NCBI GenBank assembly: GCA_050999295.1
Contig: JBPCPI010000089.1
Coordinates: 4,533-68,532 of the forward strand
DNA length: 64,000 nt
DNA from: Geodermatophilaceae bacterium
Lineage (GTDB): Bacteria; Actinomycetota; Actinomycetes; Mycobacteriales; Geodermatophilaceae
Reading direction: 5' to 3'
Position numbers and translations under genes: made by a program. The notes below the pieces were generated by a model. That model had not been told where the DNA came from. It saw only the letters and a program-made list of their open reading frames with translations, and searched no databases. Below are positions 9,665 through 29,648 of the stretch, in pieces (position 1 is the stretch's first letter; each line of letters starts with the position of its first letter).

Positions 9665-11304
9665 TAGCTACTTCGACCTGAAATAGTCGGTCGACTGAAT
9701 GTGGGGCACCCCCGAAGGTGGGTGCTTTGGTCGTTCTGATCTTCAGATTCCGGTCGATCAGCTGGCCAGCGCACCGATCTTGACAAGATTGTGCGCGAGG
9801 ACCGCCTGTCCGGTCCAGATCCGGGCTCCTTCGGTGCCGTCCAGCCGGGTGCGATCCCATCCGTATCCTCGTTTGAGGTAGCTGATCCGTCCTTCGCTGC
9901 CGGTTCGCCACTTCACGGTCTTTCGGAACGCGGGTCGGTGCTCTTGGGCCTGTCTGGCCTTACCGGGCTTGCCTTTGCGGGGGATGACGACGCTGCGAAC
10001 GCCGAGATCGTGCAGGTCGTCCTCGACCCGGCTCTCGCCGTAGCCCCGGTCGGCGGTGACGGTGCGGGGCTTGCGGCCGGTCCGCTTGATCACGCGTTCG
10101 ACGGCCGGTGCGAGTTGCGGCGCGTCCGGCGGGTTGCCTTGGGTCACGGTGTGGTCGAGCACGACCCCGTCGTCGTTGTCGAGGACCTGCGCCTTGTAGC
10201 CGAACTCGACCGGCTTGCCGAGTCTGCCTTTGGCGATCGGACGGGCGTCGGGCTCGTGCAGGCTGACCCGCCGGGTCGCCCCATCCGGAGTGATCCCGGC
10301 TACCCGTTGCCTGGTCTGCGCGGCGATCCGGCGGGTTGCATCGAGCAGCTTCGCCAGGTCGTCGACTGCGCGGCGGAGCCGGCCCCGGCGTCGACCCGCG
10401 GCCGCGTCCCGGCCGCCGACCGCGGCAAGGCCGGCGGCCTTCGCCTGCGCACGGCGTAGCGCCCGCCGGGCGTTGGCCAGCAGCCGCTCGGCCTCGGTGG
10501 CCGCCCGCTCGGCAAGCTGGGCGAGTTCACCGGTGATCCGCTGCACCCTGCGCTGCGCCTCGTCCCGGCCCTGCGCGGCTCGCAGCCGAAGCTTCGCGGC
10601 GATCCCGTGCGCCCGCTTGCCCGCTGACCGACTGCGGTCCCGCAGTCGGGTCCGGGTCGCGCCACCGGCAGCCTGAACTCGCCGGCCCGGTCACGGCGAT
10701 CCGCCAAATCGCCTTGGCCAACAGGCCCGAGTCCGTCGGATAGGCCACGTCCGCCGGGACCACCGTGGTGTCCGCGCGCAGCCGCGACGTGCGCAGCAGC
10801 TTCGCCTCGGCGGCCTTGGCCAGCAGCGCCTCGTTGCACCCATCCACCGCCGCGGTGCCACACCGAGTGGTCAGCTTCATCAGCGTCGTCGGATGCGGCA
10901 CCGTGGCCCCGAGTGGGATCCGGCAGAACAGCCGCCACGTGATCGAGTCGCTGACCTCACGACACAACGACTCATATCCCAGCCGGTAGCGGAACTTCAG
11001 AAACATCATCCGAAGGTAGGTCTCCACCGGCGTCGACGGGCGGCCCATCCGAGCATCAAAGAACCGCACGAACGGCCGAAAGAACGCCGGATCATCCAGC
11101 AGGACATCGACCCGAGCCAGCTCCCCGGGCAACACCAGCAACTCCGCCGGCAGGACCGACTCCCACAACGAGCGTTGATCGCCTACGGTACGAAACACGA
11201 TGGCCTCGATCCCTTCTAGCCCAATGGTTCGAGGCCATTCTCTCGATCAACACCGCCCCGATCAGTGACCGCCACGCGGCCACTTTTTCAGGTCGAAGTA
11301 GCTA
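9665..11304 (-). mobile_element. IS element, IS5/IS1182-type DDE transposase, perfect 19-bp terminal inverted repeats
   Basis: TAGCTACTTCGACCTGAAA at 9665-9683 is the exact reverse complement of 11286-11304. The transposase coding sequence lies between them. Confidence 0.8.
9758..11198 (-). pseudogene. IS transposase (DUF772 N-terminus plus DDE C-terminus) interrupted by a 1-nt frameshift near 10684-10690
   Basis: After ...LLAKAIWRIAVTG, ORF1 (10527-11198) becomes Arg/Gly-rich nonsense. The ORF2 frame (9758-10546) reads back through ...PGRRVQAAGGATRTRLRDRSRSAGKRAHGIAAKLRLRAAQGRDEAQRRVQRITGEL to a TGA right at the GGGCCGG run. Confidence 0.8.
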
Positions 11305-11477: not shown

Positions 11478-12227
11478 GTGACCGATCCACTGGTGCAACC
11501 GCGTCCTGATGGACAGAACCCCGCCGACTACACCGACGACGTGGTTTCGGCGGACTTGGTCCGCCTCGTGCGTGACCTGGGTCCGGGTGGCCGGCTGCCG
11601 GGTGAACGCGACCTAGCGATCCAGCTAGGGGTCAGCCGGACGGCACTGCGCGACCGGCTTCAACTTCTCGATGGACTTGGTGTGCTGCGCCGTACGACCG
11701 GTTCCGGCACCTATGTCCAGACATTGCAGCCCACCGGACTCGCGCTTGCCCTGAACGTCGCCATAAGCGTCTCTCAGCTCTCCACCGAGGCGCTGCACTC
11801 GGTTCGAATCGCGCTGGAACGGCAAGCGGCCGCCGAGGCAGCTCTGGCCGGTGACTACGTCCTGATGGCCTACATGCGAAAGGCCATCCACACGATCGAT
11901 GTCGCGAGCGATGACGCAGATGTCGACGATGCGGACTTCCACTTCCACGACGCGCTCCTTCGCGCCGCCGGCAACCCAGCGCTCAGCTTCTTCGCCGACG
12001 CACTCTCGGGTGTGCTCAAGCGGGCGCTGAGCCAGCGGCGCGCTGAAATGCGACTCCACGTTGGTGACCATGAGGTGATGGTCAATGTGCATCAGGCAAT
12101 CTATGAGGCTGTGCTGTCAGGGGACCCGGCAGCAGCGATGGCAGCGACTGACAATCACTTCGAGACGTTCGAACACTTTGCCGGGGGTGGGCACTACCGA
12201 ACCGCGCTACCCCCGCGAGGACGCTGA
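11478..12227 (+). CDS. GntR/FadR family transcriptional regulator (paralog 1)
   Basis: AAGGAGG precedes GTG 11478. wHTH block GERDLAIQLGVSRTALRDRLQLLDGLGVLRR plus an FCD-type helical C-terminus. The 3' end overlaps the convergent carrier-protein gene by 21 nt. Confidence 0.85.
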   Translation: MTDPLVQPRPDGQNPADYTDDVVSADLVRLVRDLGPGGRLPGERDLAIQLGVSRTALRDRLQLLDGLGVLRRTTGSGTYVQTLQPTGLALALNVAISVSQLSTEALHSVRIALERQAAAEAALAGDYVLMAYMRKAIHTIDVASDDADVDDADFHFHDALLRAAGNPALSFFADALSGVLKRALSQRRAEMRLHVGDHEVMVNVHQAIYEAVLSGDPAAAMAATDNHFETFEHFAGGGHYRTALPPRGR

Positions 12228-12467
12228 TTCCTTCGGCTGCAAGAAGTGGACCTCAATGGCGTCCAGGGTCCGGAATTGGTCGACACTGAGTTCATCTGCT
12301 GGGATGTCCCTGGCGACGAGGGACTCCAGCAACAAGATGAACTCCATGAAGCTGAGTGAGTCGATAAGTCGGTTCTCGATCAAGTCGAGATCCCGGGGTA
12401 TGTCCTCGAGATCGTTGTTCTTCATCTGCAGCCAGTCGATCACGGGCTTGAGGTCTTCCGACATCAC
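12207..12467 (-). CDS. acyl/aminoacyl carrier protein (86 aa)
   Basis: Four-helix carrier pattern with phosphopantetheine-Ser motif LIDSLSFMEF. The start overlaps the PPTase stop. About 54% GC by hand count of 12241-12420. Confidence 0.85.
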   Translation of the reverse strand: MMSEDLKPVIDWLQMKNNDLEDIPRDLDLIENRLIDSLSFMEFILLLESLVARDIPADELSVDQFRTLDAIEVHFLQPKESASSRG

Positions 12468-12928
12468 TGATCGCTCCTATTCAGGTCTTGGGACATTCCG
12501 ACGGCGACCGCGACCGCGTACGCGTCCTCATGCGTCATGCTCAGCGTGATGTCACCTACGCCCCGCTGACGGGCAAGCTCTTCGGCCCGTCCGTGCAGGG
12601 TCACGACGCAGGACCCTCCCGCCGTGCGTCCGATTTCGACGTCTTTCCAGGGTGGCGCCGCTGTCGTCGGCTGTAGGAGCTTGAACACGGCCTCCTTGGC
12701 TGCGAAGCGTGCGGCGAAATGTCGCGCCTGTGCCCCCGACAGAGGGGGAGCCGATTCGATCTCAGTCCGCGTGAACACCCGGCTCGCGAACCGCTCGCCC
12801 AGCCGCGCCACCACGTCGGCCATTCGGAGCACGGACACGATGTCTACCCCTACGACTGGACGTGGCGGCGGTGTGCTCGAACCCCTTGGCAGGCCCGGCG
12901 GCCGCGACGATTCTGCTGACCCGGTCAT
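12464..12928 (-). CDS. acpS: holo-[acyl-carrier-protein] synthase (AcpS-type 4'-phosphopantetheinyl transferase)
   Basis: VGVDIVSV..., FAAKEAVFKLL, WKDVEI...LSMTHEDAYAVAVAV. ATGA overlap with the upstream gene. Confidence 0.85.
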   Translation of the reverse strand: MTGSAESSRPPGLPRGSSTPPPRPVVGVDIVSVLRMADVVARLGERFASRVFTRTEIESAPPLSGAQARHFAARFAAKEAVFKLLQPTTAAPPWKDVEIGRTAGGSCVVTLHGRAEELARQRGVGDITLSMTHEDAYAVAVAVGMSQDLNRSDQ

Positions 12929-13953
12929 GAACGCATCGGCGACAACGTTGCGTCGTACTCAGCTCTGAGCCGGCCGACGATGTCCTTGGCGGGCGCGAGC
13001 CGAGTCACGCGCTCGCATGAGGTCCCGCAGTACATGGCCATCAGATCGATCCGCCCTTCGGTACGAGCAGTGGGCACCGCTGCGCTGTACCGAGGCACAG
13101 GTAACCGGCGACCCTCCACATCCGTCGTTGCGATGAATTGAGCGGCCTCACGGTTGCGCGCCTGGGTAGTCGCGTTCTGAAGCACCCGATGCGGGCGGTG
13201 CGGCCATCCGATGTCGAATGCTTCGGTGATCACTGTGTCACCGTCCCCGGCGTCCAGCACGCGTTGCTTGTAGTCCGGATGGGCGCGTGACTCGCGGGCC
13301 GGGATGAAAAGCGTGCCCGCCATGGCCCCATCGGCGCCCTCGGTCAGTGCCGCAGCCAGGTCGACCCCGGTCGCGATCCCGCCCGCCACGACGAGCACGG
13401 CCAGTGGGTGCTGGGAGCGAACTTCGGTGAGCAGTTCTGTCGAGGAAGTCGTGCCGAGATGGTGACCGCCTGCTTCGCAGCCTTGGAGAACGAGCGCGTC
13501 AGCGCCGAGCACGAGCGCTGCAGCCGCGTCCTGGGGTGTGCCGACCTGAACGACGAGATGCCGCTGGGCGCTCTTGACCAGTTCGCCGAGGTCGCTGTCT
13601 GGCAGCCCGAAAGTCGTCACGAACCCAGACTCGGGCAAATCCTCCAGGGCGGCGACGACCTGCTCACATGCGGCCGCATGGCCGCTGACCTCAGGGATGA
13701 CGTTGATCCCGAACGGGCGGTCGCACTGAGCCGCTGTTTGTCGGACAAGTCGGCGGATCGATTCGGCCCGCTCCTTGTACAACGCCAGGATGCCGCCGGC
13801 GCCGGAGTTCGAAACGCCGGCCGCGAGTTCCGGTCCCGCCACGCCACCCATCCCCGCCTGCAGTAGCGGCAGCGTCAGACCGAGGAGGTCGGTGAGGCGG
13901 GTGACGAGGGCATTTCCCCTCGGCATCATCACGTTGGCGTCATGAGCAGTCAT
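12925..13953 (-). CDS. nitronate monooxygenase / FabK-like FMN enzyme (NMO family)
   Basis: LPLLQAGMGGVAGPELAAGVSNSGAGGILA, GCEAGGH and VVAGGIATG motifs. Confidence 0.8.
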   Translation of the reverse strand: MTAHDANVMMPRGNALVTRLTDLLGLTLPLLQAGMGGVAGPELAAGVSNSGAGGILALYKERAESIRRLVRQTAAQCDRPFGINVIPEVSGHAAACEQVVAALEDLPESGFVTTFGLPDSDLGELVKSAQRHLVVQVGTPQDAAAALVLGADALVLQGCEAGGHHLGTTSSTELLTEVRSQHPLAVLVVAGGIATGVDLAAALTEGADGAMAGTLFIPARESRAHPDYKQRVLDAGDGDTVITEAFDIGWPHRPHRVLQNATTQARNREAAQFIATTDVEGRRLPVPRYSAAVPTARTEGRIDLMAMYCGTSCERVTRLAPAKDIVGRLRAEYDATLSPMRS

Positions 13954-14995
13954 CGTCGTCAGCAGGCTTTCGGGCGATGACGGCGCTGCGGTCGCCGGTC
14001 GTCGATCGACAGTCGACGACGGAGAATCCGGCCTCCTGCAACATGTCGCCGAGCTCGGCCACCGACCAGCACTTGCCGGGTGTGGAGTGCATGAGGAGCA
14101 CTGAGTATTCGGCCACCGAGCGCGGGCCGGTCTTGCGTCCGTCGATGTGTGCGTCGTGATCGACTAACCATCCTCCGGGCGGGAGTGCCGCGAAGGAGGA
14201 CGCGATCAGATGCCGCACGTGTTCCTGCCCCCAGTCATGGAGAACGTGCGAGAACAGGTGCAGGTCATAGCCTTCAGGCAGGGGGTCTGTGAACATGTCA
14301 CCGGCGATCACGTCGACTCGGTCGGCATACCCACGATCTGCCAGCAGCTGCCGGGCGGCTTGGTCGACTGGCGGGCATTCGAAGACCGCCGCCCGCATGT
14401 CCGGCATCCGGTCCAGCAGGGCGCAGGCGTAGATGCCCGAGCCGCCTCCGACATCGAGCACCCGACCGGCGCCGGCCGTACCGTCGAGAGCCACAGCCAG
14501 GGCCGGACCGAGGAACCTCCCCCGTGCGTCCATGGCCGCGGTGATCCGCTGGGCGAACGCCGGCTCGATGAGCCGCTCGGACCAGTCCTGTCTAGCCTCT
14601 GCGCTCGCCCAGGATGCGGGCCTTCCCGTGCGCAGAACTTGGAGTAGCTCGAGGCACGCCGGGCGTTCTCGTAGCGAGGCGTAGTAGGCGCGAAGATCCC
14701 ATGGGGAAGTGGCCACGAGATGGTCTGCGGCCAACTGCGTGAGGCGCAAACTGTCGGCTGCGCCGCGCTGGAGCAGACCCAGCGAGACGAGGTAGGTGGT
14801 CATCACGTCGAAGGCTCGCGCATCGAGATCGAGTTGTTGGCAGATCTCCCCGCTGCGAGCCTGCGGGTTGCCGTCCAGCCACGTGAACAGATCAAGCTCT
14901 GCTACTGCCACGATCAGCAGATCAGCGGCGTAGATGCCGTCACGTAACCGGTAGAGGACGTGCGGATCAGTCGGCTGGTGGCCCGGGGTGATCAC
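13940..14995 (-). CDS. class I SAM-dependent O-methyltransferase (dimerisation domain plus Methyltransf_2)
   Basis: N-terminal dimerisation helix pattern, SAM motif VLDVGGGSGIYA, LFSHVLHDW. Confidence 0.85.
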   Translation of the reverse strand: MITPGHQPTDPHVLYRLRDGIYAADLLIVAVAELDLFTWLDGNPQARSGEICQQLDLDARAFDVMTTYLVSLGLLQRGAADSLRLTQLAADHLVATSPWDLRAYYASLRERPACLELLQVLRTGRPASWASAEARQDWSERLIEPAFAQRITAAMDARGRFLGPALAVALDGTAGAGRVLDVGGGSGIYACALLDRMPDMRAAVFECPPVDQAARQLLADRGYADRVDVIAGDMFTDPLPEGYDLHLFSHVLHDWGQEHVRHLIASSFAALPPGGWLVDHDAHIDGRKTGPRSVAEYSVLLMHSTPGKCWSVAELGDMLQEAGFSVVDCRSTTGDRSAVIARKPADDDDCS

Positions 14996-15993
14996 GAGGC
15001 ACGCGGCTTGGCCGCCACCAACACCGTCGAAACGTTTCCGCCGATAGTGAAGGTCGTCGGTTCCTCGAACCCCACCTCACGAAGCAGGGCGGAGGTTTCC
15101 CCGATCGTGTAGTCCCCGCCGCCCTCCCACAAGATCATCGAGGAGAGGTGATGCAGCGCAGCAAAGGGTGGGCTGACCCGGTCCTCGCCCAGAAAGTTGC
15201 CGTTGAGGATGACGCGACCGCCGGGCTCGAGGGCGGCGTAGGCGCGCTCGAGAAGCAGGCGTCGCCTCTCGTCGGTCTCGGCGTGGAACATGTTGGACAG
15301 CAGTACGCCAGCGAGCCCGTCGCCATAAGCCGAAGTGGCGTAGTCGCGGGCGACGGCCACGACCCGGTCTGCCATGCCGAGTTCGGAGATGACCTTGTTG
15401 GCGATCGGAACTGTGTCCGGAATATCGAAGATCTGGGCCTGCAGCTGCGGATGTCGCCGGCACAGGGCCATGGAGTACGCGCCACATCCCCCACCGAGGT
15501 CGACGAGTGTTCCCACTAGCGGTGGATCGATGCCGTCGGCCAGCTCGTCGGCCAGCGGCACGGCGTACCGGTAGAAACCAATCTCGAGATCCCGCAACTT
15601 GGCTGGGTCCGTGCTCATTCCGGAGTCGCCGACCGCTACCGGACCACCTTTACGGACCAGCTCGGTCAGCTGCGCCCAGGACCGCCCCCACTCCCCCATC
15701 GTGCGTACCCATCCGGTCAGACTCTCGTCCGAATCGTCGGCAAGGAATCGGCGAGCTGTCTGAGTGACGGAGAAGTGATCCTTGTTCCGCGTGAGCAATC
15801 GCATGGCCACGGCCGCGTTCAGTAGCGCGTCGGTTGCTGCCGTGTCCAGTTGTAGGCGGCCCGCCACGTCCTCGGCGGTGAGTGGACTCTCGAGAAGGGT
15901 GTCCACAACTCGCAACTCGGCGAGGGTGTAGAGGACTTCGGCCTGCCAGGTACCGACCGCCAGCTGCGCGATGTGCCGCATGCCCAGTTCCAT
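14992..15993 (-). CDS. class I SAM-dependent O-methyltransferase (second copy, same fold)
   Basis: LVDLGGGCGAYS SAM motif and a COMT/CrtF-like layout. 4-nt overlap with the next gene. Confidence 0.85.
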   Translation of the reverse strand: MELGMRHIAQLAVGTWQAEVLYTLAELRVVDTLLESPLTAEDVAGRLQLDTAATDALLNAAVAMRLLTRNKDHFSVTQTARRFLADDSDESLTGWVRTMGEWGRSWAQLTELVRKGGPVAVGDSGMSTDPAKLRDLEIGFYRYAVPLADELADGIDPPLVGTLVDLGGGCGAYSMALCRRHPQLQAQIFDIPDTVPIANKVISELGMADRVVAVARDYATSAYGDGLAGVLLSNMFHAETDERRRLLLERAYAALEPGGRVILNGNFLGEDRVSPPFAALHHLSSMILWEGGGDYTIGETSALLREVGFEEPTTFTIGGNVSTVLVAAKPRAS

Positions 15994-16014
15994 GATCTAC
16001 CTACCCATCAACGG

Positions 16015-17973
16015 TCAGGACACAAGAGAGGGGGCTTGGCTGACAACCTCTCGCTCCATGCGTCCGACGAAGTACGCGCTCTCCTCGTGATTGGTCGTCG
16101 AGACGAAATTGGAGAAACCGACCTTGTAGTAGAAGGCGCTCTCGACCGGGGCTGCCTGCTCGGGGGCGGGTGTCTCCCCGGCCTTCAAGGCAGCGATCAA
16201 CGCCGGGACATCCGCGGTCAGCTTGATGGGCCTGCGCCGGTAGAACTGCTCGTTGGCGATGTCGACAACCTCGAGATCATCAGCGTCGGTCTCGTTGGAC
16301 AGGTTGCAGATAGGCAACGTCAGCAGGTCATATGCGAAGACGTCGGCGAGTAGCGGACGCACCTTTTCCGGCAACAGCGGGTCGATCGCCTCACGCCACC
16401 AGCGAGCCAATACGGCCTTGCCGTCGGGGTTGCCGTGCAGGAAGACCAGGGCCGGTCCGACCGCGCTGGACTCACCGGATGCCTTGCTCGCGATCTCCCG
16501 AAGGGGCGCGGACGCGCTGTCGGTCTGCTTGTCCACCCAGTCGCCGAGGTTCAGGAGAACTTGGGATTGCTCCATACCACCCAAGATCCGCAACGGCGTC
16601 CAGATGTTGCGCAATACCAGGTTCTCCGCGATCACCCGCGCCCAGAACAGGAAGCGATGCATCTGTCGGTTGTCCTCGAGGGACATGGAGTCGTGTGCCA
16701 GCACGTATTCGAAATCGTCGTTGTCACCACGAATGGTGATGAAGCCGTAGTCCTTCTTCTTCTCCGAGTAGTCGGTGTTCGGTAACAGGAGCAACGGATA
16801 GGCGGCAATCCGCGACACATGATGGGAGAGCCGGTCATAGCCCTCCAAGAAGGACCGGACGGTCTCCCCAGGCGACCCCCAGATGATTTCGGCGTAACAG
16901 TCGAGTCCCTCGCCTTCCAGCCATTCGACCAGGTCAGTCCAGTCGTTGACCTTCATGTTCTTCCGGTTCATCCTGTCGAGTGCATCGCCGGAAAGGGTCT
17001 GTAGTGCGAGTGTGAAGGAGCTGCGCAGCCCGGCTCGCTTCATGTCGCGCACGATGTTGTAGAAGACTTTGGACTTGTTCTTCGCCCACGAGGTCTCGAG
17101 AGTCTTGGGATAGCCGTATTGTTCCTTGACTTCGATCAGATCTTGTACGAACTCCACATCGATGGGCAACATCCCGAAGTTGGCATCGCAGAGAACGATG
17201 GTCTCGACCTTGAGTTGGGCCATGAGTTCGAGTTCGGAACGGAGTCTCGCACGAGAGAAGGCGCGAACACGCTGGCCGACGGCGCCGCCCCAGAAACAGA
17301 ACGAACACTTGTAGGGACATCCGCGGTTGGTCTCCATGAGGGCAACGTCGTACGGAAAGGCGCCGTTCTCATCCGTCAGCCGGATTGCCCCGGTGAGGAA
17401 CGGGGACGGAATGACGTCCAGATCCTCGATCCTGGGTCGTTCCTCGGTGGTTGTGATCGCCCCGGAATCGTCCTTGAAGGCGATACCCGTAATCGCGCCC
17501 AGATGACCGGGTTTCGTGCCGTCGAGGAAGGCATTCAACAGGTCGGCAAAGATGAACTCGCCCTCTCCGTTGACGATGACATCCACCTCCGGGAACATCG
17601 GAAAAACACGGGCTGCCTGGTGGGCAACATGCGTTCCTCCCATGACCACCCACCCATCAGGGTTGAGCTGCTTGAACGTCTCGGCCAGGGCGGCGAAGGT
17701 TCGGGAGTTCCACCCTGCGACGGAGAAGGCCAGGATGTCCGGAGTACCGGCCTGGAAGAGATCGTTCGCCATGTCCGAGAGCGTCAACCCGCCCCGATAG
17801 TTGAAGATCTCGATGTTCATCTCCGCAGCGATGCGGGTGTCAGCAAGAGCGGTGGCCTTCACGTAGCCAGCGGCCAGGGGCATGGATTCCATGGGCATGT
17901 CCCACACGCCTTGTTGCACAAGCCACGCACTGCGGCGCTTCTCCGGTGCGGGTGGGTACAACTCGAGTGTCAT
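16015..17973 (-). CDS. B12-binding-domain radical SAM enzyme (class B)
   Basis: N-terminal Rossmann-like cobalamin domain, then NRGCPYKCSFCFWG (CxxxCxxC). 652 aa. ATGA overlap with the upstream gene. About 45% GC in sampled line 17101-17160. Confidence 0.85.
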   Translation of the reverse strand: MTLELYPPAPEKRRSAWLVQQGVWDMPMESMPLAAGYVKATALADTRIAAEMNIEIFNYRGGLTLSDMANDLFQAGTPDILAFSVAGWNSRTFAALAETFKQLNPDGWVVMGGTHVAHQAARVFPMFPEVDVIVNGEGEFIFADLLNAFLDGTKPGHLGAITGIAFKDDSGAITTTEERPRIEDLDVIPSPFLTGAIRLTDENGAFPYDVALMETNRGCPYKCSFCFWGGAVGQRVRAFSRARLRSELELMAQLKVETIVLCDANFGMLPIDVEFVQDLIEVKEQYGYPKTLETSWAKNKSKVFYNIVRDMKRAGLRSSFTLALQTLSGDALDRMNRKNMKVNDWTDLVEWLEGEGLDCYAEIIWGSPGETVRSFLEGYDRLSHHVSRIAAYPLLLLPNTDYSEKKKDYGFITIRGDNDDFEYVLAHDSMSLEDNRQMHRFLFWARVIAENLVLRNIWTPLRILGGMEQSQVLLNLGDWVDKQTDSASAPLREIASKASGESSAVGPALVFLHGNPDGKAVLARWWREAIDPLLPEKVRPLLADVFAYDLLTLPICNLSNETDADDLEVVDIANEQFYRRRPIKLTADVPALIAALKAGETPAPEQAAPVESAFYYKVGFSNFVSTTNHEESAYFVGRMEREVVSQAPSLVS

Positions 17974-18923
17974 GACTCACTGCCAATCTGTCGGGACGTC
18001 GGATCTCGACGTTCCGCTCGCTCGGTGTTGGGTGAATGGGCCCGGACGACGTCGCCGGCAGCAATCAGGTCACCGCCGAAGGTTTCTGACAACGCGTAGA
18101 TCCATCGCTCGAGACCGAATGCAACGCAACTGGTGAACGCACTGGCACCGCGTTGCGTGATCGAGCAGCGGTCACCGAAGAAATTGCGGTGGAAGTTGAG
18201 CGAGGCAATCGCGCAATCTGTACCGAAGACGTACTCCCACTTCACCGGGTCCATCTTCTGCATGAGCGCTCGGGGGCCGCTGGGGCGAAAGAATGGATCC
18301 GTTGCCGTCTCCTCCTTGAGCAGGAGGCCGATATCGGCTGCGAAACCTGTCACCCGCTGGCGAAAATGGTCCAGGTGGGCCAACGCTGCGTCCATACCCC
18401 CGATGAACACCACCTCGCGCATATGGAAATTCCACAGGCGCTTCAGACTGTGATGCTCCTCTTCGTTTCGGTAGCAACTCGCTTTAGTGGTGACCAGGAG
18501 ATCGGCGTCGAGCCTCGTATCCTGAAGATCGAAATAGACCGGGTAACAGGCCGCAGAGGGCAGCATGAATCGCACTTCCTCGAGGTGTCCTGGCGGAAGC
18601 GAGACCGGTTGCAAGCACTGGTCCGCGTACCCGCCGAGCGAAGCGGAACTGAGCCGCGATACCGCAGATCCCAGATGCGGGAAGTTCTTGAAGTAGTCAA
18701 TGCTTTCGAGGCTGTCAACCGCGAGAACGCCCGGATAGCTGACCTCGATCGCCCCCTGCTCGGCGGCCCATCCTCGAAAGGCGCCGTCGAGTTGACGCAC
18801 CAACGCAGTCGCTTTCGGTCCTATCGTTGCGCGCCCGTAGCTGGTGTTCCACGGCCTGGACGATGGCTCCACCGTAATGCCGGTCCCGGAACTGCGTGGC
18901 GAGGACAGCATGTGTGAGTTCAC
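17970..18923 (-). CDS. class II aminoacyl-tRNA-synthetase catalytic-core homolog without tRNA-binding domain (amino acid:[carrier protein] ligase type)
   Basis: 317 aa. Motif-2-like ASCYRNEEEHHSLKRLWNFHMREVVFIG and motif-3-like SCVAFGLERW. Cys/Glu/Cys candidates for the Zn site of atypical SerRS-like enzymes. No N-terminal coiled coil or anticodon domain. Confidence 0.7.
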   Translation of the reverse strand: MNSHMLSSPRSSGTGITVEPSSRPWNTSYGRATIGPKATALVRQLDGAFRGWAAEQGAIEVSYPGVLAVDSLESIDYFKNFPHLGSAVSRLSSASLGGYADQCLQPVSLPPGHLEEVRFMLPSAACYPVYFDLQDTRLDADLLVTTKASCYRNEEEHHSLKRLWNFHMREVVFIGGMDAALAHLDHFRQRVTGFAADIGLLLKEETATDPFFRPSGPRALMQKMDPVKWEYVFGTDCAIASLNFHRNFFGDRCSITQRGASAFTSCVAFGLERWIYALSETFGGDLIAAGDVVRAHSPNTERAERRDPTSRQIGSES

Positions 18924-19001
18924 TCCAGTTGTACATCGACTGGGCTGACAGGAATAAGCAATTGAGTCCTGGTTCTGTGCCCGGCACCCCGGGGCGCCAG
19001 G

Positions 19002-19865
19002 TCAAGCCATGACGCCGATCCTTTTGTAGAACGCGACCGTGCTCGCCACGACTTTGTCCGTAGCCTGCCGCCGGCCGGGATCTGCCAGGAGTCGCTCCCG
19101 AAAGGCGAGTGGCTCCTCGATTCCAGCATCTCGATAGACTCTTGGCTCATACAGGCCGCGCACGGATGCCTCGATGTATCGAGGCACGTAGGCCTTCGCC
19201 CGTTCGATCTCAGCCGGACTGCCCTCGTCGAGCAGGCGAAGAAAGAGGATCTTCACCAGTTGGCAGCCGAAAGCGATATGGCGGGATTCGTCCTGGTGGT
19301 GTATTCGGTTTATCGCCTGGATGGTCGGGTGCAGGGCCTTGTCCGATCCCATTCGTGCGTTGAAATAATCAACGATTCGCTCGAAGATCAAGATTCGGCT
19401 GAATACCAGGAAACTCGCCACCAGCGGGGACTCTTCATCCTCGAAGACGATCTTCCGGTCAGGATAGATCTTTCCGCCGTACCGTAGGCAGAATTCCGCG
19501 AAGAACCACATGTGCTCGTTCTCCTCACCGATGAAATGGTGGAAGAACTGAGTAGGAATCTCATAGTGCGGCGTATGGATCCGGTGCATCACTTCAATCA
19601 ACAGCTCGCGGATGCCGTGCACATTCAGACTGTAGAAATGAATGCTCTCCCATTTCGACAGCGCCAGTAGTTGTTCCTGGGTGAGCTCCTGCTCGGCTTC
19701 CGTACCGGCCACGGTCATCAGGTCCCGGCTCATCCACAGGCCATCGGTCTCGATGCGCTCTGGCCAGTCGAAGGTCGCGTACGGGTTGTAGTAGTCCTCG
19801 ATCGAAGCACGACTGAGCCGATTCACGACATCGGTGAACTGGGCCTCGTACTCCTTGACAGACAC
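19002..19865 (-). CDS. AurF-like ferritin-fold diiron oxygenase
   Basis: Two ExxH motifs (GEENEHMWFF, HHQDESRHIAFG) plus extra Glu/His helices, and EDYYNPYATFDW at the N-terminus. GTG 19865 (GAAGAGG 8 nt upstream) is preferred because the track's TTG 19952 is the TTGACA -35 box and the operator would otherwise fall inside the CDS. Confidence 0.65.
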   Translation of the reverse strand: MSVKEYEAQFTDVVNRLSRASIEDYYNPYATFDWPERIETDGLWMSRDLMTVAGTEAEQELTQEQLLALSKWESIHFYSLNVHGIRELLIEVMHRIHTPHYEIPTQFFHHFIGEENEHMWFFAEFCLRYGGKIYPDRKIVFEDEESPLVASFLVFSRILIFERIVDYFNARMGSDKALHPTIQAINRIHHQDESRHIAFGCQLVKILFLRLLDEGSPAEIERAKAYVPRYIEASVRGLYEPRVYRDAGIEEPLAFRERLLADPGRRQATDKVVASTVAFYKRIGVMA

Positions 19866-19901
19866 GCTGGTTGCCTCTTCAACATCGGTATGGCCAGTGG
19901 C

Positions 19902-19920
19902 CGTATTGGTAGGACCGCTT
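19902..19920 (-). promoter_or_regulatory. 19-bp operator AAGCGGTCCTACCAATACG, copy facing the diiron/ligase operon
   Basis: Exact reverse complement of 20079-20097. Core GGTCCTACCA. Confidence 0.7.
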
Positions 19921-20078
19921 CTACCTTGGCCCAGCTGCCCTGTGATTGTCAAGGCGCCGATGATCTAGAGCCGAGCCGCGGTCCCCGGCCGTCGGGGGCG
20001 AGGAGCCCTGGTAGGCCTGATGTCTGGCCGGTCCGACGGGCGGCCTTGACACGGCAGCTCCATCTGGACGAGGCTGGC

Positions 20079-20097
20079 AAGCGGTCCTACCAATACG
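20079..20097 (+). promoter_or_regulatory. 19-bp operator AAGCGGTCCTACCAATACG, copy facing the P450 operon
   Basis: Identical to the minus-strand site at 19902-19920. Each is preceded by a TTGACA hexamer 26-27 nt upstream. Confidence 0.7.
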
Positions 20098-20177
20098 ACT
20101 ACTGGCCTTACCGTTCCCGGAAGGGGGCAGCCGACGCTGTCTGTCCAGGAGAACGATTCCCAACCTGCTGCGGTGTG

Positions 20178-21500
20178 ATGCGTTCCGGCCAGAGACTCGA
20201 AGGAGTTGCGTTGCCTCAATCTCAACCACACGCCACTAGCACCGCCGTCACTGAAGAGAACGTCCCGGCGGTCATCTCCGCCGATACCCGCGAAGTTGCG
20301 CTCGCTTTCAATTTGTTCGACCTGCCGCCGGGGTACTTCGCTGCGCCGCATGGATGGTTCCGAGCACTGCGAAATCATGACCCGGTCCATTCGAATGGCG
20401 ACGGGACGATCCTGCTCACGAGATATGCAGACGTTCGGACGATATGGCGGGATGCGACGTCGTCGGTGGACAAAGCTGACCTGTTCGAACGCAAGTTCGG
20501 TGCGGGGCCACTCCTGGAGCACCACACGACCTCGATGCTCTTCCAGAACCCACCCAATCACGAGCGGTTGCGTTCGGTGGTCATCCCGTTCTTCTCACCG
20601 AAGTCCCTGGAACGGTTACGCGAATTCATAAACAATAAGGTGGACCGCCTCTTGGACGAGATCCAGGAGCGCGGAGAACTGGATTTCGTCATCGATTTCG
20701 CGGCAAAGATTCCTATCGCGCTCATCACCCATATCCTGGGGGTGCCAGACGAGGACGGGCCGATGCTGCGCGGATTGGGTCTGCGTGTGCTCTACCCGCT
20801 CAACCCCCGGGTTGCCGACGAGGCCATCAAGTCGGGACACGAGGCCGCCGCCGAATTCGCCGAATACATGCACGAGCACATCGTCCGGGCCCGCGCCCGC
20901 GGGCTCTCCGGGGACCCCGAGACCATCGTCGAGGCGCTGGTGGCCGCCGAGCAGGGCAGCGGGGCGATCTCAGAGGCTGAGATCGTCCACAACTGCCTCC
21001 TGGTCCTCAATGGCGGGCACACGACCACGACAGACCTTCTGGGCGTGGGGACGCACACCTTGCTCGGCCTGCCGGACGACTACCGCGCACTGGCCGAGAT
21101 GCCGGAGCGATCCGTGGCCGGGGCGATCGAGGAATTGCTGCGGTTCGTATCCCCGCTTCAGCTGCAGTCGCGCCGCACCACGCGGAAGGTCGACCTGCCC
21201 TCTGGCCAGAGCGTTCCTGCCGACACCGAGGTCTGGGTCTGCCCTGCCTCGGCCAACCGTGACGACCGCGTTGTCGACAACCCAGAGACGCTGGACCTGG
21301 CCCGCAAACCCAACGCGCATGTCGCTTTCGGACTCGGCGTCCACGTCTGTCTGGGGCGTCCGCTGGCCCGGATGGAGACGGTCAGCGCGTTCCCCAAACT
21401 CGCGCGACGCTTTCCCGAACTCCACCGCGCCGGTCCCCCGGTCTTCAACCAGAACGCTCGGTTCCGTGGGCTGGCAAGCCTTCCCGTACGTGTGTCATGA
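20178..21500 (+). CDS. cytochrome P450
   Basis: I-helix GGHTTT, EELLRF, heme loop FGLGVHVCLGRPLA. Start is ATG 20178, or TTG 20211 (AGGAG 5 nt upstream). The 609-aa track ORF is over-extended antisense into the diiron gene. Confidence 0.9.
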   Translation: MRSGQRLEGVALPQSQPHATSTAVTEENVPAVISADTREVALAFNLFDLPPGYFAAPHGWFRALRNHDPVHSNGDGTILLTRYADVRTIWRDATSSVDKADLFERKFGAGPLLEHHTTSMLFQNPPNHERLRSVVIPFFSPKSLERLREFINNKVDRLLDEIQERGELDFVIDFAAKIPIALITHILGVPDEDGPMLRGLGLRVLYPLNPRVADEAIKSGHEAAAEFAEYMHEHIVRARARGLSGDPETIVEALVAAEQGSGAISEAEIVHNCLLVLNGGHTTTTDLLGVGTHTLLGLPDDYRALAEMPERSVAGAIEELLRFVSPLQLQSRRTTRKVDLPSGQSVPADTEVWVCPASANRDDRVVDNPETLDLARKPNAHVAFGLGVHVCLGRPLARMETVSAFPKLARRFPELHRAGPPVFNQNARFRGLASLPVRVS

Positions 21501-22768
21501 GCGACAGCGGCAAGGCTCCGCGCTGCCTGATCGCCGGCGGTGGGCAGGCCGCCGCGCAGGTGGCCATCAGTCTCCGCCACGTCGGCTACGCCGGAGAAAT
21601 CACGGTGATCGGCGATGAGCCGACGGCGCCCTACCAACGGCCGCCGCTGAGCAAGGCCTACCTGAAGGGCGAGATATCTGCCGAGCAGCTCCGCTTCCGT
21701 CCAGCAGCCCTGTACGAAAAGCTGCGCGTCGAGCTACGTACAGGTCAGCGCGTCGTGACCGTTGACCGCGACAAACGCGAGATCGAGCTGGACGGCGGCG
21801 AGCACGTCCCCTTCGATTGGCTCGTCCTGAGCACTGGCGCCCGCCCGCGACCGCTGTCCGTGGCCGGAGCTGAGATCCCTCGACTACTCGCCTTGCGCAC
21901 TCTTGCCGATGCCGACCGGCTGCGCGACATGCTGACCCCTGGGCGTCGGTTGCTGATCGTTGGCGCCGGTTACTTGGGGCTCGAGGTAGCGGCTGTTGCG
22001 GCCCGGCTCGGCGTTGCGGTGACCGTACTCGAGGCAGGCGAGCGGGTACTGGCGCGAGTCGCCGGATGCGAGGTGGCCGAGTTCCTGGCTGCCGTACATG
22101 CGGATGCCGGTGTGAAGATCGTGATTAGAACAACGGTCCGCGAGCTCCTCCGCGGTCCAGACGGCGCGGCCACCGGGGTTGTCTGCTCCGACGGCCGAAG
22201 CTGGGCTGCCGACCTCGTGCTGGTCGCCGTCGGCGTGGCCCCGGAAGTGGAACTCGCCGAGGCGGCCGGCTTGCCCTGTGACAACGGGATCATGGTGGAC
22301 GGGCAGGCCCGGACCAGGGACCCGCGGATCTATGCCGCAGGCGACTGTACGAATCAGCTCGACGCCGCATCCGGCCGGCGGCTGAGGCTGGAATCGGTGA
22401 ACAACGCAGTCGAACAAGGCAAGACCGTGGCGGCTGCGATTACCGGCTCATCACCCCGTGCTGCGCAGGTCCCCTGCTTCTGGTCGGATCAATATCACGT
22501 GAAGCTGCAGACCGTGGGCGTCCTTGCCGGACATGCCGCCAGTGTCGTGCGCGGCGACCCGGCGCACGGCTCTTTCGCGGTGCTCTACCTCGACGATGGC
22601 GGCCACGTGGTCGCCGTCGACGCGGTCAACGCACCACGTGAGTTCTCCTTCGCGCGATCCCTGCTCGGAAGGCGGCCAGTCGGCGAGCCACTGCCCTCGC
22701 CGGATGCCTGGCCGCGGGTCAAATCGGCGACGCTTCCCACGTTGCTGGGGAAAACGGCGGTGCTCTGA
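21497..22768 (+). CDS. FAD-dependent NAD(P)H:ferredoxin reductase (putidaredoxin-reductase type)
   Basis: LIAGGGQAA, YQRPPLSKAYL, IVGAGYLGLEVAA, AAGDC. ATGA overlap with the P450 stop. Confidence 0.9.
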   Translation: MSDSGKAPRCLIAGGGQAAAQVAISLRHVGYAGEITVIGDEPTAPYQRPPLSKAYLKGEISAEQLRFRPAALYEKLRVELRTGQRVVTVDRDKREIELDGGEHVPFDWLVLSTGARPRPLSVAGAEIPRLLALRTLADADRLRDMLTPGRRLLIVGAGYLGLEVAAVAARLGVAVTVLEAGERVLARVAGCEVAEFLAAVHADAGVKIVIRTTVRELLRGPDGAATGVVCSDGRSWAADLVLVAVGVAPEVELAEAAGLPCDNGIMVDGQARTRDPRIYAAGDCTNQLDAASGRRLRLESVNNAVEQGKTVAAAITGSSPRAAQVPCFWSDQYHVKLQTVGVLAGHAASVVRGDPAHGSFAVLYLDDGGHVVAVDAVNAPREFSFARSLLGRRPVGEPLPSPDAWPRVKSATLPTLLGKTAVL

Positions 22769-23088
22769 TGGCCACCATCACCTATGTCGAATTCGACGGC
22801 ACCGAGCACGTGATCGAGGTTGAGGACGGCCTGTCTGTCATGGAAGGCGCCGTCAACAATGCCATCCCCGGTATCGATGCAGATTGCGGCGGCGTCTGTT
22901 CGTGCGCCACCTGCCACGTGCATGTCCCGGTCGAGTGGCGAGACGTCCTGCCCGAGCGCGCCGAACCCGAACTGGACATGTTGGAGTTCGCCCCGGACCG
23001 TGACGAGGACAGCCGTCTGAGCTGTCAGCTGGTCGTGGATTCGCGGCTCGACGGAATGGTCGTGCGGTTACCGGAATCCCAGGGCTAG
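22768..23088 (+). CDS. [2Fe-2S] ferredoxin (adrenodoxin/putidaredoxin type)
   Basis: 106 aa with CGGVCSCATCHV plus a distal SCQ cysteine. The start overlaps the reductase stop. Confidence 0.9.
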   Translation: MATITYVEFDGTEHVIEVEDGLSVMEGAVNNAIPGIDADCGGVCSCATCHVHVPVEWRDVLPERAEPELDMLEFAPDRDEDSRLSCQLVVDSRLDGMVVRLPESQG

Positions 23089-23128
23089 GCCGCAGACACC
23101 TACTCCACGTGTTGATCATGGCTGGGGT

Positions 23129-23157
23129 TTGACCATCCTCGTGAGTGGTCCTACCAT
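23129..23157 (+). promoter_or_regulatory. promoter with embedded FadR-type operator TGGTCCTACCA (GntR paralog 2)
   Basis: TTGACC (23129-23134), 17-nt spacer, TACCAT (23152-23157). The palindrome TGGT-CCT-ACCA at 23146-23156 spans the -10 box. Confidence 0.6.
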
Positions 23158-23189
23158 TTCTCGAGGCGGTCGGACCTTCGGAGGTGCAT

Positions 23190-23987
23190 GTGGTGTCACC
23201 CGGATCCGACCTTTCTAGCCTCGTGGGCGACCACTACCGCTCGGACCCGGTGTCCGCCGGGCTCTCCGATGTGATTCGCTCTTTAGCCCCAGGAGATCGG
23301 CTGCTCGGCGAACGAGACCTCGCTGTCACACTCGGGGTGAGTCGCACGGCACTGCGTGACCGGTTGCGGTTGATGGAGGGCTTGGGAGTTCTGAGGCGCA
23401 CAACCGGCTCCGGCACCTTTGTGCAGGACCTTGATCCCACCGGCCTTGCGCTTGCCCTCGACATCGCGCTGTCCTCGTCGCGCATTCCGCTCTCGGCATT
23501 GCACACGGTGCGCACGGCAATCGAACGGCAGGCTGCCATCGAAGCTGCCGGCCAACAGGATCCCGTGCTGATCGCCCATATGCGGAAGGCGGTGGACACG
23601 ATTGCCGCGTCGACCGAGGACTCCGAAGTGGACAATGCGGACTTCCACTTTCATGACACTTTGCTACGGGCTTCCGGCAACCAGGCCCTCGCGTTCTTCG
23701 CCAGCGCTCTGGGCGGAGTGCTCCACAAGTCGCTTCACGAGCGACGCATCGAAATGCGCAAGATCGCCGGTGACCGCGAGGTCATGGCACGCGTTCATCG
23801 CGACATCTATGACGCGGTGGCCTCCGGAGATTCCGTGGCCGCCGCTGCTGCTGTCGAGGAGCACTTCGCCACATTCGACCGGTTGGTGCTCGCAGCCCCG
23901 AAATTGACCACACCTTCCCAACTGACCGTTACGAATTCCGGCTCTCGGAAGACCGGTGATCCCGGCGGCGCCTTGTCTCCTGACTGA
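23190..23987 (+). CDS. GntR/FadR family transcriptional regulator (paralog 2)
   Basis: GGAGG lies upstream of in-frame GTG 23190/23193. About 90% identical by eye to paralog 3. Same wHTH block GERDLAVTLGVSRTALRDRLRLMEGLGVLRR. Confidence 0.85.
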   Translation: MVSPGSDLSSLVGDHYRSDPVSAGLSDVIRSLAPGDRLLGERDLAVTLGVSRTALRDRLRLMEGLGVLRRTTGSGTFVQDLDPTGLALALDIALSSSRIPLSALHTVRTAIERQAAIEAAGQQDPVLIAHMRKAVDTIAASTEDSEVDNADFHFHDTLLRASGNQALAFFASALGGVLHKSLHERRIEMRKIAGDREVMARVHRDIYDAVASGDSVAAAAAVEEHFATFDRLVLAAPKLTTPSQLTVTNSGSRKTGDPGGALSPD

Positions 23988-24193
23988 CATTCACACGAAG
24001 TACGCCCCGCGCCGGTCTTCAGGAATGCCTACGACCGATCATCTATCCCTGTCCGATCAGGTCCCAAGATGAGGAGCGCAACGATGCCCGCGCCGTCGAC
24101 ATGCGGATCAAGTCCTTCACGTCAGTTCGAACGCGGCACCATCACTTTCGTTCCCGGCCAACACCGCCGGCCGCCCGATGCCCTGGCTGTCCG
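23988..24193 (+). pseudogene. relic of TRAP transporter genes (dctP start context plus two dctM fragments) left by internal deletions
   Basis: 24022-24086 matches 30481-30550, including GAGGAGCGCAACGATGC. GACATGCGGATCAAGTCCTTCA matches dctM at about 33188-33210. CATCAC(T/C)TTCGTTCCCGGCC matches about 33641-33662. Confidence 0.75.
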
Positions 24194-24703
24194 GTGAAAA
24201 CGGCCTCCGGAACCGGCCTTGTCCTCGTCCGCTGCGAGGCAAGTGAGGACGTCTTCGCCGGATTGTTGATGGTCTTCGACGATCTGGGCGTCGATGCTGC
24301 ATCGGTCAGCGGGATGGTGGGCAGCCTTCAGCGGGTGGAGTACGCGACAGCGGTGTGCGACCCCCGCGGGCGCCCTGGCTATAGCCGCAGCGTCATACGG
24401 ACTGGTCCCATCGAGATCGGGTCCGCACAGGGTCACCTGGGCCGGAATCCAGCCGGCCGACCTGAGCTGCATTTGCACGGGGTCTTCTTCACCGACGTCG
24501 GAACGGTGTTCGGCGGACACGTCGTCCAGGCCGAGGTCCTCGTCACCGTCGAGGTCGCCCTCATCCCCGATCGCGATGTCGGCTGGAGCAGGGACTACGT
24601 ACGAGTCAAAGGATCGGATCTGCTACCTGTCCTGCAACCGATCAACACGGAGGGTAACGCTAGTGCGCCGTTACTGAAGTGTTTTGACGGTTCGCTTTGG
24701 TGA
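24194..24703 (+). CDS. PPC (DUF296) domain protein, copy A (GTG start, altered 3' end)
   Basis: Near-identical to 33697-34167 (…ELHLHGVFFTDVGTVFGGHVVQAEVLVTVEV…). A 1-nt difference removes the original stop and reads into the IS630 remnant. Confidence 0.55.
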   Translation: MKTASGTGLVLVRCEASEDVFAGLLMVFDDLGVDAASVSGMVGSLQRVEYATAVCDPRGRPGYSRSVIRTGPIEIGSAQGHLGRNPAGRPELHLHGVFFTDVGTVFGGHVVQAEVLVTVEVALIPDRDVGWSRDYVRVKGSDLLPVLQPINTEGNASAPLLKCFDGSLW

Positions 24704-25205
24704 GGATCTGTTCTGCGGTCTTGGTCCAGACGAACGGGTGTGCTCGGTTGTTCCAGCCATCGATGAAGGCTCGGATCTTGGCGGTCAGTTCGGTCACCGA
24801 GCGAAAGGTGCCGCGGTGGATGGCTTGGCGTTCGATGATCCCGAACCAGACCTCGACCAGATTCATCCACGAGGCCGAGGTCGGGGTGAAGTGCACCCGG
24901 ATTCGCGGGTTGGCTTCGAGCCAGTCTCGGATCTCGACGCGTTTGTGGGCGGCGTAGTTGTCCATCACCAAGTGCAGTTCGACGTCGGGATGAAGTAGCA
25001 GAGCGGGAGGACGCTCAGCGACATGGCACCGACCGGAGCCAGGCGCACGCCCATTCCAGGGTCCGGATTGTTCGTCGTCTCGCGCGACGGTCGGCTGACC
25101 GAAGACGAGCGGTCTGCGATAGGCACTGTCGGCGAAACCGCCGCGAATGCGTGGCTGAAACACCAAGTACCAGCAGCTCCAGTGGCGCAGCGGGTTCGCC
25201 GCCAC
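24660..25205 (-). pseudogene. IS630-family transposase remnant (C-terminal DDE part only, 5' part degenerate)
   Basis: LHLVMDNYAAHKRVEIRDWLEANPRIRVHFTPTSASWMNLVEVWFGIIERQAI...FVWTK is typical of an IS630 C-terminus. The upstream about 75 aa do not form the N-terminal HTH. Confidence 0.75.
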
Positions 25206-25206
25206 A

Positions 25207-25525
25207 TTGATCGGCGACCCGGAAGTGTCAGACTCGCTCGGGTACGACTTCGAGGTCGTCTCTGGGAGGATGACGCTGATATTCGAAGTGAAGTCGGCGC
25301 GCGCGGAGCCCGCTGGTCTGCTCGAATTCGAGATGGGTGAGTCGGAGATTCGGACCGCCGCAGGCGAACGCTCGCAACGACCGCTACCGGATTCTGCTGA
25401 TCACCTCAGTTCTTGATCCGATCGAGCGCCGAATTCATGTTCTGCCCAATCCGTTCAGTGAGCGGGGCCGTGGTCAATACCGAGTCAACGGCCGTGGCCT
25501 GCGCTACCAGTGCGCTCCTGGCTAG
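25207..25525 (+). pseudogene. C-terminal fragment of a DUF3883-type (nuclease-fold) protein, truncated and frameshifted
   Basis: GYDFEVV...LIFEVKSA...EFEMGESEIRTA continues in another frame as NDRYRILLITSVLDP. There is no N-terminal part. Confidence 0.5.
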
Positions 25526-27194: not shown

Positions 27195-27294
27195 CGGCGG
27201 ACCTCCTAGCGCGACCGTAGACGCCGTGCGATCTTTGCCCAAGCACCCAGATTTCATATCGTGAAATGAGGGTGGCCCGAGTGTGGAGGCAGAC

Positions 27295-28056
27295 ATGACC
27301 GATAACCATCCCGTCGACGAACCCAACGACCTCGTGCAGAGCGTGTCCCGCGCTCTCAGAGTGCTCGAGGAAGTCACCCGATCCAATGGCCCGATCACGG
27401 TCAAGGCGCTCGCCCGGCGGACCGACCTGAATCTGTCCACGACCTATCACCTCGTCCGCACGCTTGCCTACGAGGGCTACCTGGTCAGGCAGCAGGATGG
27501 GAGGTATGACGTAGGCCCCGAGGTCCCCCGGCGGTTCTGCGATCTCCGTTCCACCCTCGCGAAGTCACCCGATGCCCATCACGTCCTGCGCCATCTCGCG
27601 AGCACGACCCAACGCTCGGCCTACCTCGCACGATTCATCGGCGACCGCATCATGATCACCGATTTGGTCGAGGGCAGCGCTTCGCCCTATCTCGAGGACA
27701 TCGAGGTGGGCCTGGAGGCGGCCGCCCACGCCACCGCGCTGGGCAAAGCGCTGCTGGCGACGCTTCCGCGGGCCCGTCGGCACCAATATCTCGCCGAGCA
27801 GGGGATGCGGCCGTTCACTCGCCGCACCGTCACGGACCCCGACGCTCTCGACGACGAACTGGCCACCGTAGGTCCCGGCCTCCCCGTGCTCGACCACGGA
27901 CACTTCCGCGAGCACGTCACCTGTGCGGCCACACTGGTCCCCTGCGGTGGCGAAGACTCATGGTGGGCGCTCGCGGTGTCCGAGCGCGGACAGCGGATCA
28001 GCGACGCGGTGATCGACCACATGCTCCGAGCTGCGCAGGATCTGACAGTGCGCTAG
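27295..28056 (+). CDS. IclR family transcriptional regulator
   Basis: GGAGG lies 5 nt before ATG 27295. SVSRALRVLEEV...ITVKALARRTDLNLSTTYHLVRTL plus an effector domain. Confidence 0.88.
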   Translation: MTDNHPVDEPNDLVQSVSRALRVLEEVTRSNGPITVKALARRTDLNLSTTYHLVRTLAYEGYLVRQQDGRYDVGPEVPRRFCDLRSTLAKSPDAHHVLRHLASTTQRSAYLARFIGDRIMITDLVEGSASPYLEDIEVGLEAAAHATALGKALLATLPRARRHQYLAEQGMRPFTRRTVTDPDALDDELATVGPGLPVLDHGHFREHVTCAATLVPCGGEDSWWALAVSERGQRISDAVIDHMLRAAQDLTVR

Positions 28057-29376: not shown

Positions 29377-29587
29377 GTCCGAGGTCAACTCTTGAACGCG
29401 TCGTCGCACCCCACGGGCACGGCGCGAAGTTCAGCCACAATGGCGATCGCCTTCCCAGATGTAAGAACGGGGTGACTGCGATGTCACCGGTTCGCCCATA
29501 AGGAGGTGGACCGTGACGCGAATGGCGGGCATCGACAAATTGAGTCAACCACGCCACCCACGCGCGCATTTTCGTCAACGCGGAGGG

Positions 29588-29616: not shown

Positions 29617-29648
29617 TCGTCGAAGCGGTTGGACCTTCGGAGGTGCAT

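Follow-up and report, generated by a model that had tools for sequence, protein, structure and literature searches.

Two mirrored 19-bp sequences between divergent operons of a Geodermatophilaceae bacterium are most likely sites of a GntR/FadR-type repressor

Known FadR-subfamily systems and the GntR regulators of the window

The E. coli PdhR box is AATTGGTNNNACCAATT. For the FadR subfamily of GntR regulators, the operator consensus TKGT-N3-ACMA is given in PMC4494728, and an operator consensus is also given in PMC11472048. Separate double sites in divergons of this subfamily have been documented (Suvorova, Korostelev and Gelfand 2015, PMC4494728). At the cgl2917-lldD promoter of C. glutamicum, which has a TTGACA −35 box, LldR (CGL2915) gave a DNase footprint from −4 to +29 (32–33 bp), in which the transcription start carries a strong TGGTCTGACCA site, a weak site adjoins it and two dimers bind; Arg32, Arg42 and Gly63 of LldR were crucial for DNA binding (PMC2602784).

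A 64,000-nt stretch of DNA from a Geodermatophilaceae bacterium (hereafter the window; 66% G+C) encoded three regulators of the GntR/FCD type on its plus strand. One of the window's proteins proved identical to one annotated in a Geodermatophilaceae metagenome-assembled genome. GntR1 (11478–12227; paralog 1 of the original prediction) matched FadR-subfamily NCBIfam models (PdhR, LldR) and was 100% identical to protein P0121, which has both GntR and FCD domains. GntRa (paralog 2; 23190–23987 within ORF 23145–23987) lay at the end of a P450 operon, and GntRb (paralog 3; 29649–30443 within ORF 29601–30443) was followed by TRAP transporter genes; both matched Pfam GntR and FCD and were 88% identical to each other. 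Alignment revealed that the recognition helix and wing were identical in all three paralogs, while their effector domains had diverged (58–59% identity overall). With an identical recognition helix and wing, the sequence cannot tell which paralog binds.

The closest solved structure to these proteins was that of C. glutamicum LldR (2DI3, E = 1e-13), and PdhR structures were also among the top PDB matches. LldR Arg32, Arg42 and Gly63 aligned to R, R and G, which were invariant in all paralogs and in the orthologue described below. The best NCBIfam models were NanR, LldR, PdhR and GlcC, all far under their cutoffs: the LldR equivalog NF007741 gave 67 and 81 bits (cutoff 311) and the PdhR equivalog NF007001 63 and 83 bits (cutoff 330). 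The window regulators are orthologues of neither LldR nor PdhR.

By analogy, LldR may be regarded as a close functional precedent. It is a FadR-subfamily GntR repressor with an FCD domain, a strong and a weaker site and a TTGACA −35 box, and its DNA-contact residues are kept in the window proteins. The targets here, however, are a diiron oxygenase/radical SAM/O-methyltransferase operon, a P450 operon, TRAP and MFS transporters and E1 dehydrogenase genes, and the arrangement is doubled and mirrored for a divergent operon pair. The likeness to PdhR lies in the NCBIfam and PDB matches and in the box: the consensus of 30 boxes was TTGGTACTACCAA, with an ACCAAT extension. In the divergent arms, however, ACCAAT was found on the right half only, and no pdh genes are directly controlled here.

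GntR1 was the sequence orthologue (74.6% nucleotide identity) of the single GntR in the related locus L082, where the gene follows a ferredoxin gene. In the window it is situated at the far end of the left operon, next to IS/transposase ORFs (9758–11246). GntRa and GntRb were more divergent in type and had a C-terminal extension of 20 residues.

Two mirrored promoter-operator modules in the divergent region

Two operons run back to back in the window. The left operon (minus strand) contained eight genes, beginning with that of an AurF-like diiron oxygenase (19002–19865, Pfam AurF). The others encoded an amino acid-[ACP] ligase-like protein, a KedN5-family B12 radical SAM methyltransferase (1001 bits, cutoff 700), two O-methyltransferases (OMTs), a FabK-like reductase, a phosphopantetheinyl transferase (PPTase) and a small ACP-like protein. 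The right operon (plus strand) comprised, by Pfam, cytochrome P450 (20211–21500), ferredoxin reductase (FdR, 21497–22768), 2Fe-2S ferredoxin (Fdx, 22768–23088), GntRa and a PCC-domain protein. The P450 gene had a TTG start preceded by the ribosome-binding site (RBS) GAAGGAG at 20199–20205, and an independent gene call in L001 gave an identical 429-aa protein.

A core cassette of AurF-like protein, amino acid-[ACP] ligase-like protein, FabK-like reductase, PPTase and an 82–89-aa ACP-like protein (window 12207–19865, minus strand) was present at no fewer than 448 genome loci, mostly of Streptomyces, Kitasatospora and Micromonospora, with a few in Acidobacteriota MAGs. A literature search for the AurF-like/amino acid-ACP ligase cassette found no description.

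The sequence AAGCGGTCCTACCAATACG (19 bp) occurred at 19902–19920 on the minus strand and, inverted, at 20079–20097 on the plus strand, with 158 bp (19921–20078) between the copies. A scan of the whole window allowing up to three mismatches yielded only these two matches, against 0.01 expected from shuffled sequences, bearing out the two identical mirrored sites of the original prediction. The hexamer TTGACA was confirmed 26 nt before the left copy (19952–19947, minus strand) and 27 nt before the right copy (20046–20051, plus strand), as had been claimed. The core GGTCCTACCA was found exactly four times in the window, two of them inside the 19-mers. The remaining two, likewise as predicted, were parts of TGGTCCTACCA at 23146 and 29605, in the promoters of the GntR/FCD genes GntRa and GntRb.

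One syntenic orthologue of the divergent pair was found, in locus L082 (L083 and L088 have the same sequence); its AurF-like protein and P450 were 79% and 71% identical to those of the window, and it had a single GntR gene within 20.9 kb. In another locus, L093, a similar promoter region preceded a truncated OMT1 and OMT2. The two arms of the window, the two arms of L082 and that of L093, representing three organisms, were aligned. The sole invariant blocks were CTTGACA, the A and T of a candidate −10 (A..T), GGTC-TACCAAT and C-GGC--TACC. The functional unit is likely to be not the 19-mer but a 12-nt box 1 plus a second box 21 bp away.

Each arm of the window is laid out as TTGACA, 18 nt, a NANNNT −10, 2–3 nt, box 1 and then box 2. 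Box 1 reads GGTC(C/A)TACCAAT, i.e. GGTCCTACCAAT, and box 2 reads GGCC(A/T)TACC, i.e. GGCNNTACC, exactly 21 bp after box 1 on both arms; at 15/15 sites this distance was 21 bp. On the left arm (minus strand), the −35 TTGACA of the AurF-like operon (19947–19952; CTTGACA invariant in 5/5 aligned arms) is followed after 18 nt by the candidate −10 CAAGGT (19923–19928; A2 and T6 invariant in the alignment, a weak match to TATAAT). The left 19-mer holds box 1 GGTCCTACC (19916–19908) plus AAT, and box 2, GGCCATACC, lies at 19887–19895. On the right arm (plus strand), the alignment placed the −35 TTGACA of the P450 operon at 20046–20051 and the candidate −10 GAGGCT, again 18 nt on, at 20070–20075; the right 19-mer holds box 1 GGTCCTACC (20083–20091) plus AAT, and box 2, GGCCTTACC, lies at 20104–20112. 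Both arms of L082 showed TTGACA, 18 nt, NANNNT, 6–9 nt, GGTC(C/A)TACCAAT and, 21 bp on, GGCACTACC. The gap between the −10 and box 1 was thus 2–3 nt in the window arms versus 6–9 nt in related loci.

The candidate −10 sequences CAAGGT and GAGGCT are without the first T of TANNNT, and a scan for E. coli-type sigma-70 promoters reported none. The conserved TTGACA-N18-NANNNT would put box 1 at about +1; with −10 sequences this weak and a silent scanner, where the boxes fall with respect to +1 is a prediction. TACCAA within box 1 was considered as the −10 of the divergent arms and rejected: there was no conserved −35 at 16–19 nt upstream, TTGACA being 34–37 nt away.

The longest AurF-like ORF starts at TTG 19952, within the −35 TTGACA. 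Because AurF-like homologues are 287–300 aa long, the L082 orthologue starts at the equivalent GTG, an RBS (GAAGAGG, of the GAGGAG type, 19880–19874) precedes GTG 19865–19863 and the −35 is invariant, the predicted start of the gene is corrected to GTG 19865, and TTG 19952 is read as part of a −35 box, in agreement with the original prediction. Exact-protein look-ups of the AurF-like protein with three alternative starts found no record.

The two boxes fit the operators of the FadR subfamily. TGGTCCTACCA at 23146 and 29605 is a perfect match to TNGT-N3-ACNA/TKGT-N3-ACMA, and the divergent-arm box, CGGTCCTACCA, departs from the consensus at one outer position. A cognate regulator with GntR and FCD domains is encoded in the locus, and likewise in L082, L099, L100 and L102. 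The 19-bp sequences are most likely GntR/FadR-type repressor sites of the two back-to-back operons. More specifically, and with good though not full confidence, we take each of them to be the strong half of a promoter-operator module, the two modules standing back to back, independent of one another, and serving an LldR/PdhR-like FadR-subfamily GntR repressor.

If the hexamers are the promoter, the boxes would span about +1 to +12 (box 1) and about +22 to +31 (box 2). One dimer would sit on the near-palindromic box 1 and a second on the weaker box 2; 21 bp being two helical turns, the dimers would share one face of the DNA. Jointly covering ~33 bp at the transcription start, they would stop initiation by RNA polymerase, and a small-molecule effector bound to the FCD domain would free the repressor from the DNA. 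A carboxylic or 2-oxo acid is the probable effector, as suggested by the TRAP/MFS transporters and E1 dehydrogenase genes that accompany orthologous regulators elsewhere.

Each arm keeps its internal spacing, but the two arms lie 175 bp apart in the window and 331 bp apart in L082, which would suit two independent units and not a loop. DNA looping between the arms was rejected: the distances are unconserved and correspond to non-integral numbers of helical turns, and nothing requires looping. The divergons described in PMC4494728 similarly have a set of sites for each divergent operon, an extra weaker box beside the palindrome, and a distance between the site sets that follows intergenic length, as the 175 and 331 bp do here. 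The extra box described there is, however, a half-site 7–12 nt away. Box 2 of the window is a full, though degenerate, palindrome that begins 21 bp after the start of box 1, leaving 12 nt between the two. The orthologous group of the window GntR proteins was not identified in the available part of PMC4494728.

The predicted promoters, if right, put both boxes in 5′ UTRs, where the conserved sequence could work as RNA, i.e. as a shared leader element with a structured or protein-bound motif. This is highly improbable. Between 19000 and 21000 no Rfam match was obtained at E ≤ 1, the leaders folded no better than shuffled sequences (z = −0.06 to +0.8), and a common structure was not found. The motif is a DNA palindrome of FadR type, and at the GntR and MFS promoters described below box 1 is upstream of the −10 and so untranscribed.

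Further sites in the window and in related loci

The pattern GGTNNNACC-N12-GGYNNNACC gave nine strand-hits in the window, at five promoters, against 0.01 expected. These were the promoters of the AurF-like operon, the P450 operon, GntRa, GntRb and an MFS transporter. With a position matrix, trained in part on the window's own sites, the five sites scored 24–31 bits, compared with 8 for the highest-scoring unrelated position in the window. Both the pattern and the matrix located the dual box of the GntRa promoter, GGTCCTACC-N12-GGTCGGACC, at 23147–23176 (plus strand), that of the GntRb promoter, GGTCCTACC-N12-GGTTGGACC, at 29606–29635 (plus strand), and that of the promoter of the MFS metabolite/H+ symporter, GGTCATACC-N12-GGCATTACC, at 38729–38758 (minus strand). 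No box was detected upstream of GntR1 (11478–12227).

Box 1 of GntRa overlaps the −10 TACCAT (23152–23157), which is 17 nt after TTGACC (23129–23134), and the MFS dual box has TTGACG (38772–38767) on one side and the ATG at 38708 on the other. Box 1 of the GntR and MFS promoters is upstream of the −10, between −35 and −10, which would also be a repressor position. The same type of regulator would then act on its own genes (GntRa and GntRb) and on the MFS transporter as well as on the divergent operons.

A third box, GGTTTGACC, covered the −35 of GntRa at 23126–23134 (plus strand), exactly 21 bp from box 1; the equivalent position of GntRb was degenerate (GGGTTGACC).

Four loci (43.6 kb) were picked only by the similarity of their GntR proteins, which were 58–73% identical to GntR1. 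The dual box was present in three of the four, at five sites, all in promoter regions: before the GntR gene in L099 and L100 (GntR 73% identical), and before the GntR, PCC and MFS genes in Amycolatopsis L102 (GntR 58% identical). The remaining locus, L101, had a pair spaced by 22 bp, matching a relaxed pattern only, before an E1 dehydrogenase operon. As a control, 80 actinomycete loci were fetched with the AurF-like protein; they share the core cassette but have no divergent P450 or GntR, and the dual box gave 0 matches in their 1,259,233 bp. These 80 loci had been considered for footprinting, but only the core cassette was in common and so they were used as the negative control.

A metagenome-wide scan with a stricter dual-box pattern, in which loci were selected by the pattern itself, returned only 14 stretches. 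About half were in low-GC coding DNA without promoter features and look like chance matches. Every high-GC match was promoter-like: the orthologue, L093 and three contigs with the site before another GntR-family gene. In these three (L091, 339–368; L095, 44–73; L098, 600–629; 70–73% G+C), GGTCTTACCAAT-N9-GGCCTTACC was placed after a TTGACG and before the ATG of a more remote member of the GntR family (MALPKPTEVTAIDAVFE...). Dual boxes of this design would thus extend past this GntR orthologous group.

The architecture of the sites, their statistical excess, their conservation and their co-occurrence with this GntR group were all observed directly. The FadR-type box proposed at the outset is upheld by its fit to the consensus, its invariance in five arms, the dual boxes at GntR orthologues and their absence from 1.26 Mb of control loci. 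That one GntR repressor controls both operons was substantiated in part: the same module is on both arms, in the window and in L082 with its single GntR, but one paralog was not singled out. Two or even all three of the paralogs may stand behind the "one repressor".

The original prediction had named membership of a dispersed repeat family as a possible refutation, and such a family, or a miniature mobile element with no regulatory function, would not be out of place among the IS elements and segment duplications of the window; the L093 module, too, adjoins an IS-like ORF. The counts speak against it, with two copies in 64 kb, 14 dual-box stretches metagenome-wide and none in the control loci, and no terminal repeats or target duplications were associated with the sequence. 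We regard this explanation as scarcely credible.

Operation by another protein, or by GntR as an activator, is unlikely but carries somewhat more weight. The window contains the gene of an IclR-type regulator (27265–28056), whose operators the sites might be, and binding upstream of a promoter allows FadR-family proteins to activate, as E. coli FadR does at fabA. The motif, however, goes with GntR orthologues in loci that have no IclR gene (L082, L099, L100 and L102), and the boxes match the FadR-subfamily consensus. All the sites are within or downstream of the predicted core promoter, the position of a repressor, as for LldR.

Duplication of the arms and a wider regulon

Read in gene direction, the likeness of the two arms spanned ~120 nt, compared with the 19 originally noticed. 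The arms aligned as GCCTTGACA, the 19-mer, ACTGGCC-TACCG and TGTCTGTC-AGGAG-ACGA; the last block is, on the left arm, codons 1–7 of the AurF-like gene. A copy of these codons, CTGTCTGTCCAGGAGAACGA, was found in the P450 leader at 20137–20156 (plus strand), and it appears to mark the extent of an inverted duplication or conversion. The ~120-nt likeness with its stranded codon copy thus indicates that the arms came from an inverted duplication or from later gene conversion. The non-box identity was 55% between the window's two arms and 29–41% between orthologous arms of different genomes. Since the former is as high as 55%, part of the similarity of the window's arms is attributable to shared ancestry and not to selection. 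Part of the perfect identity of the 19-mers is probably explained by duplication or by gene conversion of one arm by the other, and conversion may have left behind the identity outside the 12 bases under constraint.

The ~120-nt likeness, the codon copy and the excess of 55% over 29–41% would also suit a repeat that is nothing but a neutral trace, left when the AurF-like promoter and 5′ end underwent inverted duplication or gene conversion. Such a trace is predicted to decay evenly, whereas the boxes are perfect and the spacers have drifted. In L082 the boxes are kept on both arms, although the two arms are otherwise at background level (38% non-box identity), and boxes occur also at unrelated promoters (MFS, the GntR genes, Amycolatopsis). 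A purely neutral origin is therefore very unlikely.

The codon copy in the P450 leader, with an RBS-like GGAAGGGGG upstream, reads as a 13-codon ORF (20137–20178, plus strand) with CTG replacing GTG. It was missing in the orthologue L082, and may be either a small upstream ORF or a relic.

A more tentative suggestion, which we hold to be possible but on balance doubtful, is that the module (promoter, two operators, RBS and first codons) is a copyable cassette that recruits operons, by duplication or gene conversion, to a transporter/dehydrogenase regulon. It is prompted by the AurF-like codon copy in the P450 leader, the OMT1 fusion in L093 and the duplication of a GntR promoter with its gene. 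If so, the recruited operons would be a cryptic biosynthetic-looking cluster and a P450 system.

In L093 (520–700) the promoter, operator, RBS and an xTG-TCT start were fused to the C-terminal 80 aa of OMT1, followed by OMT2. Upstream of this module, L093 624–695 resembled window 29525–29592, which is upstream of the GntRb promoter. Segment duplication was seen in the window at 23143–24665, 29602–30550 and 33638–34169. The promoter and gene of GntRa shared 87% identity with those of GntRb, and a second PCC gene, downstream of the TRAP genes, shared 93% with the one that follows GntRa. The first duplicated copy was directly followed by a DDE_3 transposase ORF (24660–25400).

The five promoters are predicted to form a regulon of an LldR/PdhR-like group of GntR proteins, so far uncharacterised, with members in Geodermatophilaceae, Amycolatopsis and related uncultured actinomycetes. 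Through three paralogs with a common DNA-reading head and diverged effector domains, as judged from their sequences, these promoters could integrate several chemical signals. The cryptic cluster, with its amino acid-ACP ligase-like protein, diiron oxygenase, KedN5-type radical SAM methyltransferase, two O-methyltransferases and P450 system, might be switched on by deletion of the GntR genes or mutation of box 1. The locus is an ordinary example of a known regulatory design and leaves the general view of GntR regulation unchanged.

A lone weaker box, GCGGTCCTGCCAT (10.4 bits), was also found at 36993–37005 (plus strand), in the intergenic stretch on which the E1/transketolase genes and the MFS gene converge; a partner at 21 bp was absent. 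Elsewhere in the window, a TPP riboswitch (Rfam RF00059, 58.8 bits, gathering score 54.3) was detected at 44337–44448 on the minus strand, upstream of ORF 42994–44355 and near thiE and thiG.
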